This document shows, piece after piece, positions 2,228-63,177 of a stretch of DNA of 64,000 bases (its first letter is position 1; every line of letters begins with the position of its first letter). The translations under genes were made by a program, and so were the position numbers. The notes beneath the pieces were generated by a model. It saw only the letters and a program-made list of their open reading frames with translations. It ran no database searches and was not told the origin of the DNA. The DNA comes from an uncultured Myxococcales bacterium (GTDB lineage: Bacteria > UBA10199 > 2-02-FULL-44-16 > JAAZCA01), in the NCBI GenBank assembly GCA_964480565.1, contig CAYZSU010000002.1, positions 3,367 through 67,366 on the forward strand, written 5' to 3'.

Positions 2228-3182
2228 TTTTTTTATCTGATATCAGAGCCTCTGCTGGCGCTAAATCACGATCTCTAAAAAACTTATCATTAACCGATGT
2301 CATGGCATTCACTTCAGCAGCCACATGCCATGCTTGACTTAACTGTCCTGAAACACCCGCACCCAATGACAATAGATGTTGATAATTGATATTTTGAATA
2401 CTTACTTTTTTGCCTGTACGAAAACCCAGATTCACAGCAATACCCAGTTTAGAATGTGGATAGATATCCAGTGCAGCCTTCATACCACCGGTAATACCTG
2501 CATCACCAGTATAGTGAGTATCGCTACCTGTTGGAACAGTAATAAATGGCATTAATGCCACACCAATGGGTGATTTACATGCGCCTAGCAACTTACTCTT
2601 CAACTCAATGCGCAAATCCCCCACATCAATCTGTGTATTAAGCGATGTAGTTGACCTGTCCAAAGGCGATTTAAATGAATTATATAGTACAAATGGCATA
2701 TCAATGCCCAATTGCAACCACGGCATAATGCCCACCGCAGCGGTTAAATCACTGACCAGTAAATGATCGATTACCCCACGGGCACGAAAGTTACTGCTTT
2801 TTACCTGCATGGGTTTAAATGCATAGGAATGATGCATACCCACTAAAAACTGTTTGGCATACAAACTCTCTGATCCGCTAAGCATGGAATATGATGATGG
2901 ACCAATCACAGGTTGATGGAAAATACCATTAAATGTTTGCGAAGCTGCAAATGCATGGCCATGCATTATTGCAAGCATGCCAAAGGTCAAACAAATGAGA
3001 TTGTTGAAAAGCACCCATCTTCGGTGTTTCCCGCTACACCCGTAATCCTTAACAACTCGCATGGTCGCTCGGCCCACGGATTTACGGGCGCCTTGAATCT
3101 GGGCATTTTTGAATAACCCCACAAATTGTCCATTTTTCAATAGTCCCCAAATGAATAGGATTTTTCGATATGAATATGTCAC
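2124..3182 (-). CDS. Beta-barrel-like N-terminal part of the OmpA-family protein. Its signal-peptide region carries an in-frame MITE insertion; the ancestral start is GTG at 3182 with an AAGAGG Shine-Dalgarno sequence. Alternative internal starts at 3062 (ATG inside the MITE) or 2978.
   Basis: Alternating amphipathic beta-strand pattern (KAALDIYPHSKLGIAVNLGFRTG; LSLGAGVSGQLSQAWHVAAEVNAM). Residues 12-61 are a translation of repeat copy A. The reconstructed pre-insertion N-terminus VTYSYRKILFICLTFGMLAIMHGHAFA|AS is a clean signal peptide. Confidence 0.5.
   Translation of the reverse strand: MTYSYRKILFIWGLLKNGQFVGLFKNAQIQGARKSVGRATMRVVKDYGCSGKHRRWVLFNNLICLTFGMLAIMHGHAFAASQTFNGIFHQPVIGPSSYSMLSGSESLYAKQFLVGMHHSYAFKPMQVKSSNFRARGVIDHLLVSDLTAAVGIMPWLQLGIDMPFVLYNSFKSPLDRSTTSLNTQIDVGDLRIELKSKLLGACKSPIGVALMPFITVPTGSDTHYTGDAGITGGMKAALDIYPHSKLGIAVNLGFRTGKKVSIQNINYQHLLSLGAGVSGQLSQAWHVAAEVNAMTSVNDKFFRDRDLAPAEALISDKKIGIIHGGRGRNVFGLWSEGRKSAWKFGIILSIYD
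2999..3147 (+). mobile_element. MITE-like dispersed repeat, copy A (core type 1). Flanked by a direct duplication CAAATGA (2992-2998 and 3148-3154).
   Basis: Shares GATTGTTGAAAAG-CACCCATCTTCGGTGTTTCCCGCTACACCCG...TCTGGGCATTTTTGAA...CAATAGTCCC with copies at 27861, 31693 and 32744. Termini are inverted; flanks are target-site-duplication-like. Confidence 0.8.
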
Positions 3183-7287: not shown

Positions 7288-9420
7288 TTATGGTGTTATC
7301 TGTAATGTCGTTCCCGGCGTTACTTTGGATGGATCATGCAGTTTATTCCATTTTTGTAATTGCGCAATGCTCACATTATGTTTTCTCGCAATATTCCATA
7401 ATGTATCACCTGCTCGCACTTGATAATACATATTTTGCTCTACCTTATCCGCATCTGCGACCAGTTGATCACGCACAGATGCCAGCTCTAAAGCAGATGA
7501 TTGCTTACCACGGATACGAAGGGACTTGCCTGCACGAACGGATTTGGCATGCCGAATATTATTCCAGACCATCAACTGTTTGATACTCACATTATGCCGA
7601 TTGGCAATACCGCCCAAGGTTTCTCCAGGCTTGACTGTATACTGATAGGATTTAGTTGCAGATATTGTTGATGAGGATATATTATTATCCGCCATGCGCA
7701 CTGATGAACGGCTACTGCGTTGACCGCTCCCCTGTCGTCCCACTTGCTCACCATAGATACGAAGGGACTTGCCTGCACGAACAGATTTTGCATTCCGAAT
7801 ATTATTCCATGCCATCAGCTGTTTAATACTCACATTATGTCGGTTGGCAATACCACCCAATGTCTCTCCAGATTTAATTGTATATTTATAGGACTTACTC
7901 GTATTTCTTTTAGAATTAGCCGTATTCTTTGCAATTGATAGTTGTGGACGAATTTTTATTTTCTGCCCTGCCCGAATGCGTTTTGGATTTTTAATATTAT
8001 TCCATGTCATAATATCCGCGCTAGTCACATGGTACTTTTTAGCAAGGCCTGACAATGTATCCCCGGATTTTAATATATGTATTTTAGACTTTGCTTTGGA
8101 TGATGTATTTGTAGCTATACGCGATGATGAATATATTTTTAATTTCTGGCCCAATCGTACTGTATTTCGTTTATTCAATTTATTCCATTTTTGTAAATTC
8201 GTTAATGAGACATGATATTTCCTGGCAATATGCCCAGCAGTCTCCCCCTTTTTTACACGATGATATACGGCTTGCTGACGTTTGGAAGTGCGCGACCGGC
8301 CATGCGATGCAACCGATGATGGCATTTTCCCATTTAGAGGTATAATTAGTTTTTTTCCCAACTTTAAATGACGATAATTTCGAATGTGGTTGGCACGTGC
8401 AATGGTCTTTACTCCTACATTATATTTTCTAGCAATACCTGATAGTGTATCCCCACGTTTGACACGGTGGTACGCCATGCGAATACGCTTGGACTTAGGC
8501 AATTTGGCATATTTTTGATTAAAAATAGCCGCTGTCCCTTTGGGCAAACGCACTTTATAATTACGCACTGGTGGTGTAATTTTACGATATAAATGCGGGT
8601 TTAGAATAAGAATGTTTTTATTTGTACTACCTGTTAAGTCTGCAATCACACTTAAATCAGTCTGAGTACCCACCATACTCACATCATAATCAAAGGGTGC
8701 TGCATAGTTGATATTTGTAAATCCAAATTTTTCAGGCATTTTTGCAATAATTGCTGCCGCTATATACTTTGGCACATAATTACGGGTTTCCGCACGAAGT
8801 GCACGCTTATGCGCTGCCCACGTCCAAAAATCTTTCACACCTGTCATTTTATATGCTTTGTTAATGCGACCAGGCCCTGCATTATATCCCACCATCGCCA
8901 CATACCAATCGCCATGCTTATCATATAAATCACGGAAAAATCTGGCAGCCGCACGTGTAGACTTATACACGTCTCGGCGTTCATCCACCCAATGACCCAC
9001 TTTTAAATCATAAATACGTGCAGTAGATGCAATAAATTGCCAAAAACCAACTGCGCTCGCATGTGAATAGGCCTGTGAATTGAACCCACTTTCAATCATA
9101 GCAATATATACTAAATCCAGAGGTAATCCTTCTTCTTTTAATATGCTGCGCATAATTGATATATATCGACCTGAACGTTCTAAATATCGTTGAAATGATT
9201 TTCGACCTGGACCTTGGAAATACTCTAACCACGCCACCACACGCTCATTAATAGTAATAGGCATATCAAATTTTGGCAAATATTTTAGATTATGTTCTTT
9301 AATATAACGATGTGAATACTTGGATGATCGTACTTTTGGCGTTTTCAAACAGGAAATACTTCCAACCGCGTAAATAACAACTAGAATGATCAAGAGTGCA
9401 TATCGAAAAGAATGTCGCAT
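7288..9420 (-). CDS. mltD: Membrane-bound lytic murein transglycosylase D-like lipoprotein (SLT domain plus five or six LysM repeats)
   Basis: SLT catalytic region ...ESGFN...VGFWQF.... Repeated LysM modules (YxVKxGDTLxxIAxKYxV...WN). Lipobox GSISC. Start at 9420, so that the ftsZ terminator hairpin (9445-9486) lies upstream of the CDS. Confidence 0.8.
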   Translation of the reverse strand: MRHSFRYALLIILVVIYAVGSISCLKTPKVRSSKYSHRYIKEHNLKYLPKFDMPITINERVVAWLEYFQGPGRKSFQRYLERSGRYISIMRSILKEEGLPLDLVYIAMIESGFNSQAYSHASAVGFWQFIASTARIYDLKVGHWVDERRDVYKSTRAAARFFRDLYDKHGDWYVAMVGYNAGPGRINKAYKMTGVKDFWTWAAHKRALRAETRNYVPKYIAAAIIAKMPEKFGFTNINYAAPFDYDVSMVGTQTDLSVIADLTGSTNKNILILNPHLYRKITPPVRNYKVRLPKGTAAIFNQKYAKLPKSKRIRMAYHRVKRGDTLSGIARKYNVGVKTIARANHIRNYRHLKLGKKLIIPLNGKMPSSVASHGRSRTSKRQQAVYHRVKKGETAGHIARKYHVSLTNLQKWNKLNKRNTVRLGQKLKIYSSSRIATNTSSKAKSKIHILKSGDTLSGLAKKYHVTSADIMTWNNIKNPKRIRAGQKIKIRPQLSIAKNTANSKRNTSKSYKYTIKSGETLGGIANRHNVSIKQLMAWNNIRNAKSVRAGKSLRIYGEQVGRQGSGQRSSRSSVRMADNNISSSTISATKSYQYTVKPGETLGGIANRHNVSIKQLMVWNNIRHAKSVRAGKSLRIRGKQSSALELASVRDQLVADADKVEQNMYYQVRAGDTLWNIARKHNVSIAQLQKWNKLHDPSKVTPGTTLQITP

Positions 9421-9435
9421 GACGACCTCATTAGT

Positions 9436-9486
9436 AAAAACTATATCGCACAACAATAATAACTACTATCATTACTGCTGTGCGAT
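9436..9486 (-). terminator. Candidate terminator after ftsZ (end of the dcw operon)
   Basis: Inverted repeat ATCGCACAaCAa...tgCTGTGCGAT (9445-9486), 5 nt after the ftsZ stop. Followed on the minus strand by TTTTTA. Confidence 0.4.
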
Positions 9487-26585: not shown

Positions 26586-27469
26586 ACACCCCTTACCAAC
26601 ACTCGCATCTTTGCACTACGCGATCTAGGATTTTGAGCAATCTCATCATCACCTGCACAAATAATTTTTTTATATGCCAAATGATAGTCTTCATCCTTAG
26701 CCAATCGTTTAAATGTATGCTTTACCAGTCGATCTTCCAATGAATGATAGCTAATCATAATCATTTTACCACTCACTGCTAACAACTTTGGAGCTGTATT
26801 TAGAAGTATATTTATCTGCGCTAATTCCTGATTAACTTCAATACGAATAGCCTGGAATGTACGTGTTGCAGGATGAATCCGACCATAGCGCATCTTCGGT
26901 GGATAGCATGCTGCAATAATTTGAGATAATACCAATGTACTATCAATTGGACGCGCCTTACAGATGGCACGTGCAATACGCCTAGCAAATCGGTCCTGCC
27001 CATAGTCTTTAATGATAATAGCCAGCGCATCCTCTTCCATTTCATTAATCACAATACCTGCATGATATGCATCCGATTGATTCATACGCATATCCAGCGG
27101 TGCATCTTTTTGAAAACTAAATCCACGCTTTGCAGTATCCAATTGAAAGCTAGACACACCAAAATCTGCCAATATCCCTACTATATTTAATTGTCTAAGA
27201 TCAGGTAATGATGACACATCTTTCATATCTGCATGAATGGCATTAAATCGATTGCCAAAACATTTAAGACGTTCAGATGCTGCTATAATTGCATCCATAT
27301 CCCTATCAATCCCAACAATATTAATACCTGGCATTGACTCCAGCAATGCATGACTATGCCCGCCACCACCCAATGTCACATCCAATATACTACCCGCCAT
27401 ATTTATGGATGAAAATTCGTCTAGCACTTCCTTGCACAGTACCGGCACATGATAGGATTCGTCGATCAC
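26582..27469 (-). CDS. rsmH: 16S rRNA (cytosine1402-N4)-methyltransferase RsmH/MraW
   Basis: HVPVLCKEVL N-terminus; SAM-binding DVTLGGGGHS. Confidence 0.9.
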   Translation of the reverse strand: MIDESYHVPVLCKEVLDEFSSINMAGSILDVTLGGGGHSHALLESMPGINIVGIDRDMDAIIAASERLKCFGNRFNAIHADMKDVSSLPDLRQLNIVGILADFGVSSFQLDTAKRGFSFQKDAPLDMRMNQSDAYHAGIVINEMEEDALAIIIKDYGQDRFARRIARAICKARPIDSTLVLSQIIAACYPPKMRYGRIHPATRTFQAIRIEVNQELAQINILLNTAPKLLAVSGKMIMISYHSLEDRLVKHTFKRLAKDEDYHLAYKKIICAGDDEIAQNPRSRSAKMRVLVRGV

Positions 27470-27846
27470 TGCATGACCTCTGGCCTATAATCGCCAGCAA
27501 AACTAATCAATGCCTCTTCTACGGATGTATATAAGTTCTCATTCCATCCCATAGCCTGAAAAATATAGCGAATATAATCACTGACTGCGGCCATCTTTAA
27601 ATCACCGCCATCACATTTAAATGCAATAATTTGATCGACTATCTTACGAACTAACTTGTAGTCAAGATGCGTCAGTCCAGAGAAATTAAGCACTACATTA
27701 TTCTGTTCACACTGAGCCAGAGACATAAATACATTTTCCAGCACATGTATATTATGACTCGACAATTCTCCATTTACGCCAACAATAGATACATCATGAC
27801 ATCTGGTAACTTCAAACATATCTCTCTCCCCAAAGATCCCTCGCAA
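27466..27846 (-). CDS. STAS-domain protein (anti-sigma-factor-antagonist-like), inserted between mraZ and rsmH
   Basis: SpoIIAA-like pattern (VSIVGVNGELSSHNIHVLEN...VVLNFSGLTHLDYKLVRKIVDQI). 4-nt overlap with rsmH. Confidence 0.55.
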   Translation of the reverse strand: MRGIFGERDMFEVTRCHDVSIVGVNGELSSHNIHVLENVFMSLAQCEQNNVVLNFSGLTHLDYKLVRKIVDQIIAFKCDGGDLKMAAVSDYIRYIFQAMGWNENLYTSVEEALISFAGDYRPEVMQ

Positions 27847-27860
27847 TTATTTCAATAGTG

Positions 27861-28009
27861 GGGCTGTTGAAAAATGCCCATCTTCGGTGTTTCCCGCTAC
27901 ACCCGCAATCCTCACGTACTCGCATGTACGCTCCGGTTACGGGTTTGCGGAAGCCTAGAATCTGGGCATTTTTGAACAACCCCTAAAATTGCTATTTCTC
28001 AACAGTCCC
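27861..28009 (+). mobile_element. MITE-like dispersed repeat, copy B (core type 1). Perfect 6-bp direct duplication ATAGTG (27855-27860 and 28010-28015).
   Basis: GGGCTGTTGAAAAATGCCCATCTTCGGTGTTTCCCGCTACACCCGCAATCC...TCTGGGCATTTTTGAACAACCCCTAAAATTGCTATTTCTCAACAGTCCC. Termini are mutual reverse complements. Confidence 0.85.
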
Positions 28010-28058
28010 ATAGTGAAAGCGCCTAAAAAACATCCCTTCCTTAGGCCAGTCTGCCCAC

Positions 28059-28499
28059 TTACAATCCCAAATCAGCCAAGCGACTACCTAAATTTTCTAA
28101 TGTACTTTGCGCATCATTAAATACAAGATCCCAACGATCTTTGGCCCAAATCTCAAATCGTTTTGTCATGCCCACAATAATGACATCACGCGACATTCCA
28201 GCATAATCACGCAATGATGCGGGAATGATAATCCGACCCTGCTTATCAATAGGGCATTCCACTGCAGCGGATATAAATACGCGCTGCAATGCTTTAACTT
28301 CTTCCATGAATTGCGGCAATGCGCTGACTTTTCCTTCCAACACCTGCCATTCACTCACTGGATAAGCCCATAAACATTGATCAAAATTGGTAATAATCAC
28401 ACGCTCATCATAATTGGAGCCCAATGTATCGCGAAAACGCGATGGCACTGATAATCGCCCTTTTGCATCAATTTGATGATTATATCGCCCTCGAAACAT
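28059..28499 (-). CDS. mraZ: Transcriptional regulator MraZ
   Basis: Duplicated MraZ/SpoVT-AbrB-like halves (IDAKGRLSVPSRFR; IDKQGRIIIPASLR). Confidence 0.9.
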   Translation of the reverse strand: MFRGRYNHQIDAKGRLSVPSRFRDTLGSNYDERVIITNFDQCLWAYPVSEWQVLEGKVSALPQFMEEVKALQRVFISAAVECPIDKQGRIIIPASLRDYAGMSRDVIIVGMTKRFEIWAKDRWDLVFNDAQSTLENLGSRLADLGL

Positions 28500-31155: not shown

Positions 31156-31665
31156 ATGACACGTACTTGGCTTATCGCACTCACAGCACTTATCACAACT
31201 TGCATGGTATCACCTCTTGTATATGCATTAAATGACTGCTACCATTCAGGGGAACAATTACTCATACATGATAATAGTACAGGACATGTTCGTTATGAAC
31301 GTACTGAGACAATTTATCAGCAACCTGATAATTTTTTACTCGCCACAATTGAAGATGAACGTATTATTTTCACACCCATTGTTGAAGTTTTCAAAAATGA
31401 GCTTACCAATCGTTTACTTCGCATTGAATTATCCACTGGCCATAGTTTGATGATCACAGAATCCCATCCAGTATGGGTGAATGACACATTTATCACAGCT
31501 GGCACATTAAGCATCGATGATACATTAACCAGTATTACTGGCGAATCCGTAAGCATCATGGATGTCAAGGTGATGAATTATGATGGATTTGTATATAATT
31601 TTGCTATCAATGGTTCAGGCATACAAATCAGCGATGGCATCCGCCTAGGCGGATCAGACATATAA
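31156..31665 (+). CDS. Small secreted protein consisting essentially of a Hint (Hedgehog/intein / bacterial intein-like) domain
   Basis: Strong AGGAG Shine-Dalgarno sequence. Signal peptide MTRTWLIALTALITTCMVSPLVYA. Hint-like blocks: LTGHSLMITESHPVWV, AGTLSIDDTLTSITGESVSI and the terminal VYNF. Confidence 0.45.
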   Translation: MTRTWLIALTALITTCMVSPLVYALNDCYHSGEQLLIHDNSTGHVRYERTETIYQQPDNFLLATIEDERIIFTPIVEVFKNELTNRLLRIELSTGHSLMITESHPVWVNDTFITAGTLSIDDTLTSITGESVSIMDVKVMNYDGFVYNFAINGSGIQISDGIRLGGSDI

Positions 31666-31692
31666 AACCAACTCAACAACTAATTACACTAT

Positions 31693-31843
31693 GGGACTGG
31701 TGAAAAATAGCAATTTGTGGGGTTGTTCAAAAATGTCCAGATTCAAGGCCTCCCGCAAACTCGTAACCGGAGCGTACATGCGAGTACGTGAGGATTGCGA
31801 GTGTAGCGGGAAACACAGAAGATGGGCGTTTTTCAACAACCCC
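31693..31843 (-). mobile_element. MITE-like dispersed repeat, copy C (core type 1, inverted orientation). Direct duplication (C)ACTAT at 31687-31692 and 31843/31844-31848.
   Basis: Reverse complement of copy B along its whole length (GGGACTGGTGAAAAATAGCAATTTGTGGGGTTGTTCAAAAATGTCCAGATTC...GAAGATGGGCGTTTTTCAACAACCC). Confidence 0.8.
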
Positions 31844-31868
31844 ACTATCAATACACTATGATTTCACA

Positions 31869-32130: not shown

Positions 32131-32217
32131 GGGGAGGTGGCCGAGTGGCTGAAGGCGGCACCCTGCTAAGGTGTTATACGGGAGACCGTATCGAGGGTTC
32201 AAATCCCTCCCTCTCCG
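32131..32217 (+). tRNA. tRNA-Ser (anticodon GCU), long variable arm. CCA not encoded.
   Basis: Folded by hand. Acceptor stem GGGGAGG/CCTCTCC (one G-U pair). D-arm GCCGAGTGGCTGAAGGC. Anticodon loop CTGCTAA. T-arm GAGGGTTCAAATCCCTC. Discriminator G. Confidence 0.9.
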
Positions 32218-32225
32218 CAACAAAA

Positions 32226-32252: not shown

Positions 32253-32354
32253 TTGCGGCAAAGGGTCGGTGAGAACGCTCACGTTCAAACAGGAATGGCC
32301 TATAAAAACAGAAATCCTAAAAATAACTGTGTAATTGCATAGGAAAAGACCTAT

Positions 32355-33565
32355 ATGAATAAAAAGGGACTCCAAAAAATCGGATACGATGAACGAATAG
32401 ACAGTGTAAGCGGTGAATACCTTCAGGACGGGTTTACGATTGCCAGAATAATCGAGGTAAAAATAGCTATACCGTATCAAATGGTCGTCATGAGATGCCG
32501 GCAGAACTCTGCGGTAAATTTCTATTTGATATAGAGAATACAAGCAATTTTCCGACTGTCGGTGACTGGGTAACAATACAGGCCCTTTCTGATAATGCAC
32601 TTGCCCTTATCCACTCTGTCTTGCCGCGCAAGACGCTATTGAAGTGTAAAGAAGCTGGCAGAAAAATAGCATTCCAGCTGATTGCTGCCAATATAGACAT
32701 CGGATTAATCGTACAACCAGCAGATCAGATTAACCTGCTGGATGGGACTGTTGAAAAACGCCCATCTTCGGTGTTGTTCAGCAAATTCAATTCAGTTACA
32801 TACTCGTATGTATGCGCCTTCATTGAATTTGCTGTCCGCCTAGAATCTGGGCATTTTTGAACAGCCCCTAAAATACCTATTTCTCAACAGTCCCTGGATA
32901 GGTATTGCGCGATGCTATAATGAGAGCGATATACAACCTATAGCGGTATTTACGAAAAAAGATCTGATCCCACCTGATGAGATCTCATCCATACAAAATG
33001 ACCTTGCCATGTTACACATGCAATATGTGTTTATCAGCAATGCCGTCAAAGGTGGAGAAACGGATCTATCCAAAAATCTCGTTTCAGGTAAAACATATTG
33101 TTTACTTGGCAAATCCGGAGTCGGCAAGACATCCCTTCTCAATCGATTGCTTCATAGTGATGAGTTCAAAGTAAATAATGTTCGAAAAAAAGATGGAAAA
33201 GGAAAGCATACCACTACAAAACGACAGCTGGTGTGTCTTGATTCCGGCAGCATCTTCATTGATACACCAGGCATGCGAGAACTTGGAAATTTTAAAATAA
33301 ACAAAGGCATCGATGAAACGTTTGAAGAGTTCTCTTTGCTAGCATTATCCTGTCGCTTCAAAAATTGTACCCATAACCACGAAGAGGGATGCGCAGTTCT
33401 TGACGCTATCTCACGGGGAAAATCGAACAAACTAGATATGATAATTTTTTAAAGCTCAAACGAGAGGCAGAATTCTATGACATGTCATATCATGAAAAGC
33501 GCCATAAGGATAAATCCTTTGGAAAAATGATAAAACAGTACAAAAAATTTAAAAATCAGCAATAG
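32355..33565 (+). pseudogene. rsgA: rsgA (ribosome small-subunit-dependent GTPase A) pseudogene, split by MITE copy D and at least three frameshifts
   Basis: RsgA blocks recovered in three different frames: OB domain (...CGKFLFDI...PTVGDWV), IAANIDIGLIV / LDRY / IAVFTKKDL, G domain (GKSGVGKTSLLN, GKGKHTTT, DTPG), zinc finger (CRFKNCTHNHEEGCAV) and tail RYDNFLKLKRE. Confidence 0.75.
32744..32893 (+). mobile_element. MITE-like dispersed repeat, copy D (core type 2), inserted inside rsgA. Direct duplication (C)TGGAT at 32738-32743 and 32894-32899.
   Basis: GGGACTGTTGAAAAACGCCCATCTTCGGTGTTGTTCAG...TCTGGGCATTTTTGAACAGCCCCTAAAATACCTATTTCTCAACAGTCC. Same termini as copies A-C but a different core. 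Confidence 0.8.
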
Positions 33566-54702: not shown

Positions 54703-54726
54703 CAAAATGCCCATCTTCGGTGTTTC
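54703..54726 (+). repeat. Solo fragment of the MITE left terminus
   Basis: CAAAATGCCCATCTTCGGTGTTTC matches the left end of copies A and B. Confidence 0.5.
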
Positions 54727-54744
54727 AAAGATAATCCATAACTA

Positions 54745-62390: not shown

Positions 62391-62610
62391 GGGTTTTTTT
62401 AAAAACGCCCATCATCAGTGTTATTCAGTAAATTCAATTCAGTAGCATATTCTTATGGTTGCGCTCTCATTGAATTTTCTGTTTAGCGATGTGACAACCT
62501 GAGTGTTTGCATTCGCAAATAGCCAAGCTGATCAAGCGCTTATGCATTACTGACAGTGAAAATATAATAGTCGCTGTCTGCTTAAAACCTGGATATTTTT
62601 GAACAGTTCC
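62391..62610 (+). mobile_element. Long mosaic MITE variant (copy F). It has the type-2 left end plus a ~75-bp extra core module, and a truncated/divergent right end that abuts the pth stop codon.
   Basis: GGGTTTTTTTAAAAACGCCCATCATCAGTGTTATTCAG... matches copy D. The middle matches 31911-32040. The end is ...GGATATTTTTGAACAG. Confidence 0.65.
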
Positions 62611-63177
62611 TCAATTTGTATGAAATCGTTGTTGAACATCTGCAAGTGTCATATCGCTTACCAAACATTTAATTGCGCGACTTGCAGTATTAATCAACTC
62701 TTTCAATTGTATATCATCATTACTATCAAAGGCTTGCAATACATAATCCGCGGGATTCATATAATTTGGTGGTCTGCCAATGCCAAACCGAATGCGGTAT
62801 ATGTCCTTACTGCTAAGCATTTGATAAATTGACCGAATGCCATTGTGACCACCATGACCACGATTCGTATCAATTTTTATTTTTCCAAATGAAATATCTA
62901 GATCATCATGAATCACAATAATATCATGGCACTCTATTTTATAATACCCTGCAATACTAGCAACCGCTTCACCAGATAAATTCATAAATGTTTCTGGCTT
63001 AATCAATATGGCAGGCCGATTTTCAATTAGCCCTTTACCGATAAGTGACTTAAATTGCTTATTGCATACATCGATATTCCACTGACCTGCCAAGTAATCG
63101 ATTACATGAAAGCCAATATTATGGCGATGTCTAGAATATCGTCTACCCGGATTACCTAGTCCAACAATTAACTTCAT
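62611..63177 (-). CDS. pth: Peptidyl-tRNA hydrolase
   Basis: MKLIVGLGNPG...HNIGF... catalytic His/Asp blocks. Confidence 0.9.
   Translation of the reverse strand: MKLIVGLGNPGRRYSRHRHNIGFHVIDYLAGQWNIDVCNKQFKSLIGKGLIENRPAILIKPETFMNLSGEAVASIAGYYKIECHDIIVIHDDLDISFGKIKIDTNRGHGGHNGIRSIYQMLSSKDIYRIRFGIGRPPNYMNPADYVLQAFDSNDDIQLKELINTASRAIKCLVSDMTLADVQQRFHTN

Follow-up and report, generated by a model that had tools for sequence, protein, structure and literature searches.

RsgA, also called YjeQ or EngC, is a GTPase of 30S-subunit maturation whose activity depends on the 30S subunit; the family is defined by the profiles TIGR00157 and PF03193 and represented by several solved structures (6H4D, 2YKR, 5UZ4, 1T9H, and 1U0L). 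Pseudogenes arising from duplicated genes that have been hit by an IS or a MITE are a general bacterial phenomenon, for example with the Correia elements in Neisseria and the RPEs in Rickettsia. Another described group of small elements is that of the TIMEs, Tn3-derived MITEs that are 262 bp long and carry 38-bp terminal repeats homologous to Tn3-family repeats (PMC4133298). A literature search for rsgA pseudogenes or rsgA paralogues found nothing relevant.

The locus described here occupies positions 32355–33565 (+) of a 64,000-nt stretch of DNA from an uncultured bacterium, which was analyzed as a whole and is called the window below. This locus holds a full-length rsgA homologue that, with a probability of about 0.8, is what remains, in non-functional form, of one member of a pair of rsgA paralogues, that is, the product of an ordinary loss of a redundant duplicate in which RsgA function is kept. 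By exact protein match, the window sequence lies within a 67,963-nt metagenome scaffold (ENA ERZ23498660 SUTE22-1_SAMN10231913), and the nearest database relatives of the bacterium are MAGs labelled “Deltaproteobacteria bacterium.”

Three-frame translation and the ORF list divide the RsgA blocks between the frames of 32355 and 32357, and the ORFs left at the locus are 59, 121, 147, and 27 aa long. Because 32355–33565 contains no continuous full-length RsgA ORF, it is filed as a pseudogene of the family and not as a member gene. When the reading frame is conceptually repaired, the resulting 352-aa product scores 163.3 bits on TIGR00157, above the curated cut-off of 100, and the 351-aa repair made in a preliminary description of this DNA reaches 138 bits on PF03193, where the cut-off is 30, so that the profile comparison proposed there came out in favor of RsgA. 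Compared with solved RsgA structures, the repaired product reaches E = 4e-32 and aligns to residues 80–327 of 6H4D. The conceptual translation has the whole architecture of the family with its circularly permuted GTPase: an OB-fold, then G4 (TKKD) placed before G1 (GKSGVGKTS), followed by G3 (DTPG) and the zinc finger CRFKNCTHNHEEGC, which has the C-terminal CxxxxCxHxxxxxC form of the family. Within RsgA, the window copy belongs to a subfamily of 354–357 aa with an “LGYDEW” N-terminus and a lysine-rich tail.

When the repaired product was searched against 5.8 billion proteins, a single close match emerged, an intact 355-aa RsgA (P0001) encoded on another contig (L022), with 83% protein identity and 100% query coverage; the next matches are at ≤65%. 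P0001 scores 169.4 bits on TIGR00157. None of these proteins represents an intact allele that would exceed 83% identity, the GTDB species-representative genomes yielded only relatives of ≤41% identity, and a metagenome scan gave only matches of 34–37%, among them neither a MITE-free allele nor a close relative. The preliminary description had named a search for an intact paralogue as a check on its reading that RsgA is lost, and the continuous 355-aa ORF on the other contig goes against that reading.

The lesions were positioned by nucleotide alignment of the window to the intact gene (L022 10001–11068), in which 1,054 aligned positions are 86.8% identical. The two loci become homologous at a leader of ~37 nt (32318–32354, +) 5′ of the ATG, which matches the leader of the intact copy (blastn, L022 9955–10389 vs. 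window 32318–32736, and the alignment). The first segment of the gene (32355–32458, +) is read in the ATG frame from MNKK to ARIIEV, with MNKKGLQKIGYDERIDSVSGEYLQDGFTIARIIE(V), and ends at frameshift 1, a loss of 4 nt (TAAC) between 32458 and 32459 (GAGGT[TAAC]AAAAATAG). The second segment (32459–32743, +) is in the frame of 32357, runs from KNSYTVSNGRHEMPAELCGKF to IAANIDIGLIVQPADQINLLD, and comprises the OB-fold together with the first part of the GTPase domain. It also has a derived in-frame deletion of 6 nt at ~32730, by which Asn-Leu was lost from the conserved N-x-N-L-L-D-R-Y block, and its final 5 nt are the left TGGAT copy of the target duplication of the MITE that follows. Beyond the MITE and the right TGGAT, the frame of the second segment is resumed at 32900–32920 (+) and is right for six codons (RYCAML), up to frameshift 2, an additional A at 32919/32920 (CTA TA[A] TGA) that creates a TAA stop at 32918–32920; the ancestral peptide here is LDRYCAMLYESDIQP. 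The third segment (32921–33414, +) returns to the ATG frame with (Y)ESDIQPIAVFTKKDL, carries G4, G1, G3, and the zinc finger, and ends in AIS at frameshift 3, a loss of one A between 33414 and 33415 (TCAC[A]GGGG). The last segment (33415–33565, +), again in the frame of 32357, reads (Q)GKIEQTRYDNFLKLKREAEFYDMSYHEKRHKDKSFGKMIKQYKKFKNQQ / (Q)GKIEQTRYDNFLKLKRE and continues to NQQ and a TAG stop at 33563–33565, and homology to the intact copy stops at this stop codon. A 3-nt indel near 32541 is, by outgroup comparison, an insertion in the intact P0001 and no lesion of the window copy.

Measured against this alignment, the preliminary description stands in outline and changes in detail. Its count of three frameshifts is upheld, although two of its placements were wrong: the N-terminal split, put near 32490, is at 32458/32459, and the T said to be inserted directly after RY, giving a peptide LDRY-AR-CYNESD, is the extra A at 32919/32920. 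Likewise, all RsgA blocks are present as it had said, but they are spread over two frames by translation, not three. It was also correct on the presence and the place of a MITE with a target duplication, while the end given at 32893 moves to 32894 by the empty site, and the RY described as displaced by the element is in frame, within RYCAML.

The MITE in rsgA (32744–32894, +) is 151 nt long and belongs to core subfamily B. Only incidental ORFs of ≤33 aa start within it, so it is small and non-coding. Its TIRs, GGGACTGTTGA and TCAACAGTCCC, are paired at 11 of 11 positions, the full length of the element forms a long hairpin (z = −6.6), and it has a stop codon in the incoming frame. The insertion is located at the boundary between the OB-fold and the GTPase domain, flanked by a 5-bp target duplication, TGGAT, at 32739–32743 and 32895–32899 (+). 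In the intact paralogue, TGGAT occurs only once at the empty site (CTGCTGGATAGATAT), and the limits of the element were set at 32744 and 32894 for this reason.

Profile searches found five copies of the family in 64 kb, ~1 per 12 kb, and one full copy plus one remnant or weak partial copy on L022; a 30-nt probe of the MITE end gave 3 matches against 0 expected. Besides the rsgA copy, the window contains subfamily A copies at 27860–28009 (+, duplication ATAGT), 31693–31843 (−, duplication ATAGT; given as ~0.9 kb upstream of the pseudogene), and 2997–3147 (+, duplication CAAAT, left end degenerate), a longer and more diverged copy at 62391–62637 (+) with a subfamily B core and ~100 nt of extra internal sequence, and a fragment at ~54704–54741. 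The duplications at these three subfamily A copies, ATAGT, ATAGT, and CAAAT, are also 5 bp long. The two core subfamilies have common ends, and the copy in rsgA is closest (88%) to the full copy on L022 (11292–11445), which lies 224 nt downstream of the intact rsgA. No copy was found by profile search in the loci of four relatives, a whole-window Rfam scan gave no match on the MITE, and neither the window nor L022 showed a transposase gene.

The first of the ATAGT copies stands where the dcw cluster begins, between mraZ (28059–28499, −) and a STAS-domain gene (27466–27819, −); the latter, wedged between mraZ and rsmH, is an unusual gene at that place. Taken with their borders (27855–28018 and 31684–31848), the two ATAGT copies are 3.7 kb apart in opposite orientation and have not only the same ATAGT but also nearly the same adjoining bases (ATAGTGAAA vs. 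ATAGTGTAA), which could reflect either a preference for certain targets or a duplication in which the flanks were copied as well. Between them are mraZ, a beta-lactamase-family gene, an S66 peptidase gene, and a small Hint-domain gene. A 169-aa ORF (31156–31665) with a signal-peptide-like N-terminus and a weak PT-HINT match is located between the peptidase genes and a MITE. Elsewhere in the window, the direct repeats with a spacing of 243 nt inside 7288–9456 are no mobile DNA; they are the six LysM repeats of a 722-aa SLT-LysM lytic transglycosylase-like protein.

As for the surroundings of the pseudogene, its upstream neighbor is a tRNA-Ser(GCT) gene with a hairpin just 3′ of it (32131–32218, +; ARAGORN, Rfam RF00005, and inverted repeat), outside the rsgA remnant. 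The GC profile of 26–40 kb of the window has no island-like anomaly around the locus, and a scan for promoters and terminators found sites no more numerous than in shuffled sequence.

The lesions recur in independent assemblies. A contig of JGI 3300007511 spans frameshift 1 and the left MITE junction, and contigs of JGI 3300009008 and 3300007510 span the right junction together with frameshifts 2 and 3; wherever they overlap the window, all three match it at 100%. These contigs terminate inside the MITE, and contig ends within a dispersed repeat are the usual behavior of assemblers. A further contig, from Logan SRR8062321, is also 100% identical, covering the neighboring gene but no more of rsgA than its final 100 nt (the 3′ tail, from window 33463). 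Because the ENA assembly agrees at each lesion with one or more of the three JGI assemblies, assembly or sequencing error is excluded for practical purposes, and the earlier view that this is real gene-specific decay and no sequence-quality noise is borne out. One might still suppose that the frameshifts are consensus errors, or that the contig is a chimera of two paralogues, with a gene that is truly intact, given that frameshifts 1 and 3 lie next to short runs of A or G and that two similar paralogues in one sample can mislead assemblers. This is highly improbable: the ENA and JGI assemblies come from different samples and pipelines, a chimera of colinear paralogues would keep the frame, and deletions of 4 and 6 nt and a 151-nt insertion with a target duplication are no homopolymer miscalls. 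Moreover, 83% is the highest identity to the repaired product that any database protein reaches, which means that an intact allele has yet to turn up in an assembly. That the locus still functions as a split gene, by programmed frameshifting, or by read-through has in its favor that the upstream leader is conserved and that the 147-aa ORF (33009–33452) alone scores 111 bits on TIGR00157, above the cut-off; yet three independent frame changes in different directions would all have to be bypassed, in addition to the stop in the MITE and the TAA before the third segment, and we regard this as extremely improbable. The 147-aa ORF has neither the OB-fold nor G4, whose TKKD is encoded upstream of it at ~32954–32965 in the third segment, and the 121-aa ORF has no family match in the profile search. 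As no ORF at the locus keeps more than the G1–G3 and zinc-finger part, no RsgA protein can be made from 32355–33565.

Whether the cell is nevertheless provided with RsgA depends on where P0001 belongs. Homology between the window and L022 is limited to the gene and the ~37-nt leader, and the flanking genes are unrelated. Four indirect lines of evidence make it very likely that the intact copy is in the same genome as the pseudogene, the two contigs themselves being physically unlinked. The P0001 gene occurs in JGI 3300007511 and 3300007510, both of which also have the pseudogene, and Logan SRR8062321 contains a gene from the contig of P0001 together with the neighboring gene of the window. The compositions agree: GC is 38.7% vs. 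39.1%, and the tetranucleotide correlation of L022 (rsgA removed) with the window halves is 0.984–0.986, as compared with 0.987 between the halves themselves and ≤0.89 for eight other loci. The MITE subfamily is common to both (88%). Finally, among the 5.8 billion proteins, FtsI of the window has no match between itself (100%) and 58%, and for RNase G of L022 the first match below 100% is at 74%, so that a sister species is not represented there. In principle, given a dS of 0.5, an unsampled relative with the same composition and MITEs could own the intact copy. L022 also carries a set of oxidative-stress genes of an anaerobe.

The preliminary description had read the broken gene as a loss of RsgA that fits a reduced or host-associated lifestyle. 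In this reading, the window copy was the only rsgA of the organism, the function disappeared through genome reduction or host association, and the intact copy would be that of a co-occurring relative. The two copies are indeed on separate contigs and differ by 13% at the nucleotide level, and the MITE density of ~1 per 12 kb is high, as is sometimes seen in recently host-restricted bacteria. We nonetheless consider it unlikely. A sister organism that yields a 31-kb contig in several samples should leave orthologues at 85–95% identity, while the best non-self matches are the 58% (FtsI) and 74% (RNase G) given above; the identical composition, the common MITE subfamily, and the joint occurrence of the contigs in three datasets speak for one genome. 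In addition, the window has a complete dcw cluster, genes of glycogen metabolism, and other intact long genes, and with the oxidative-stress genes of the other contig there is no sign of genome reduction. Because an intact rsgA copy exists, the inference on lifestyle is dropped. A pseudogene in a single window is no evidence of a lost function unless paralogues have been excluded.

The preferred reading, in which the window copy is a redundant duplicate, also bears on the tempo of the decay. Compared codon by codon in the ancestral frame, the two copies have dS = 0.51, dN = 0.072, and dN/dS = 0.14, and the ~350 codons of the ancestral frame contain no nonsense substitution. At 35 conserved positions both copies differ from the outgroups, and the two are for this reason taken as sister copies within the lineage. 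Relative to 21 outgroup proteins, 26 lineage-specific amino-acid changes fall on the window copy and 18 on P0001 (p = 0.29), so that the dead copy has no significant acceleration. At outgroup-invariant positions, the changes are four against one, the four of the window copy being I to L, R to C, S to P, and R to K (in the GKGRHTT motif). From the low dN/dS, the absence of nonsense substitutions in these codons, and the lack of significant acceleration, both copies would have been under purifying selection during nearly all of their divergence, and the window copy probably died recently; the small excess of replacements may represent a neutral period of a few percent of the branch. The decay is unusually rich in indels, with five disabling or derived indel events against a small and non-significant excess of substitutions, although these numbers are small. 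Divergence is uneven along the gene: at third positions, it is 35% in codons 1–130 vs. 19.5% after these (Fisher p = 0.002), and the last ~150 nt of the two copies are ~96% identical. A possible explanation is that the paralogues have undergone partial gene conversion.

These data are consistent with the following course of events. Two rsgA copies would have diverged long ago (dS ~0.5), both under purifying selection, and the intact 355-aa P0001, at an unrelated locus of the same genome, would supply the RsgA function. The copy in the window may then have become dispensable and been inactivated only recently through the 151-nt MITE and the frameshifting indels (−4, +1, −1), the MITE being one of several lesions and the order of MITE and indels being either way around.

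A different history can be imagined for the two loci, in which a housekeeping gene was relocated or replaced with the assistance of MITEs, and the original copy next to tRNA-Ser then decayed in place. At ~9900–9955 of L022 there is a foldback remnant of a MITE end, 46–55 nt long, with GGGGGTGCCCTCAAAATGTCCATCTTCTGTG followed by TTTTTCAACAACCCC, and it ends precisely where homology begins on the 5′ side (L022 9955 = window 32318). With this remnant on its 5′ side and the full copy 224 nt on its 3′ side, the intact rsgA is placed between MITE-family sequences, an arrangement that recalls the TIME-bounded composites moving passenger genes. A composite transposon is a weak candidate for the intact copy, since the outer flanks of the MITEs share no 5-bp duplication (TTGAG vs. 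ACTCT) and homology to the window extends no further than the stop codon, 224 nt short of the downstream MITE. Relocation of this kind is, on balance, very unlikely. Among four relatives, no two rsgA neighborhoods agree and none is like either locus. The RsgA subfamily, with its 354–357 aa, “LGYDEW” N-terminus, and KDKSFGKM-IKNYKK tail, has a different neighborhood in each relative examined, which is unusual for a housekeeping gene of ribosome biogenesis and suggests that it may be a mobile or secondary paralogue.

Viewed as the remnant of a redundant paralogue, the locus offers a dated example of a ribosome-biogenesis GTPase copy that was probably discarded shortly after it became dispensable. 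It also provides a description, verified by an empty site, of a previously undescribed family of 151-nt MITEs with 5-bp duplications and two core subfamilies, which is dense in an uncultured lineage.

Compared with RsgA/YjeQ/EngC proteins that are made and solved, the window copy is untranslatable owing to the MITE and the three frameshifts, and the identity of its repaired product to the solved proteins is ~30%. Like the TIMEs, the elements of the window are small and non-coding and make target duplications of the 5- or 6-bp class. Their ends start with GGGG/GGGA, like those of the Tn3 family. Unlike the 262-bp TIMEs, however, the element is 151 nt long, no Tn3-type transposase was seen, and only the 5-bp duplication matches the published definition (PMC4133298). 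The resemblance is therefore only a lead, and the family is not assigned to the TIMEs. A further parallel is found in the pseudogenes of duplicated genes hit by an IS or a MITE, with which the locus has in common a small TIR element and its target duplication within coding sequence, additional small indels, and a redundant intact copy. It differs from the cases with Correia elements and RPEs in that its element is outside the named families, with no Rfam match, and that its host is an uncultured lineage. The locus is a new instance of this well-known phenomenon, a redundant paralogue hit by a MITE.
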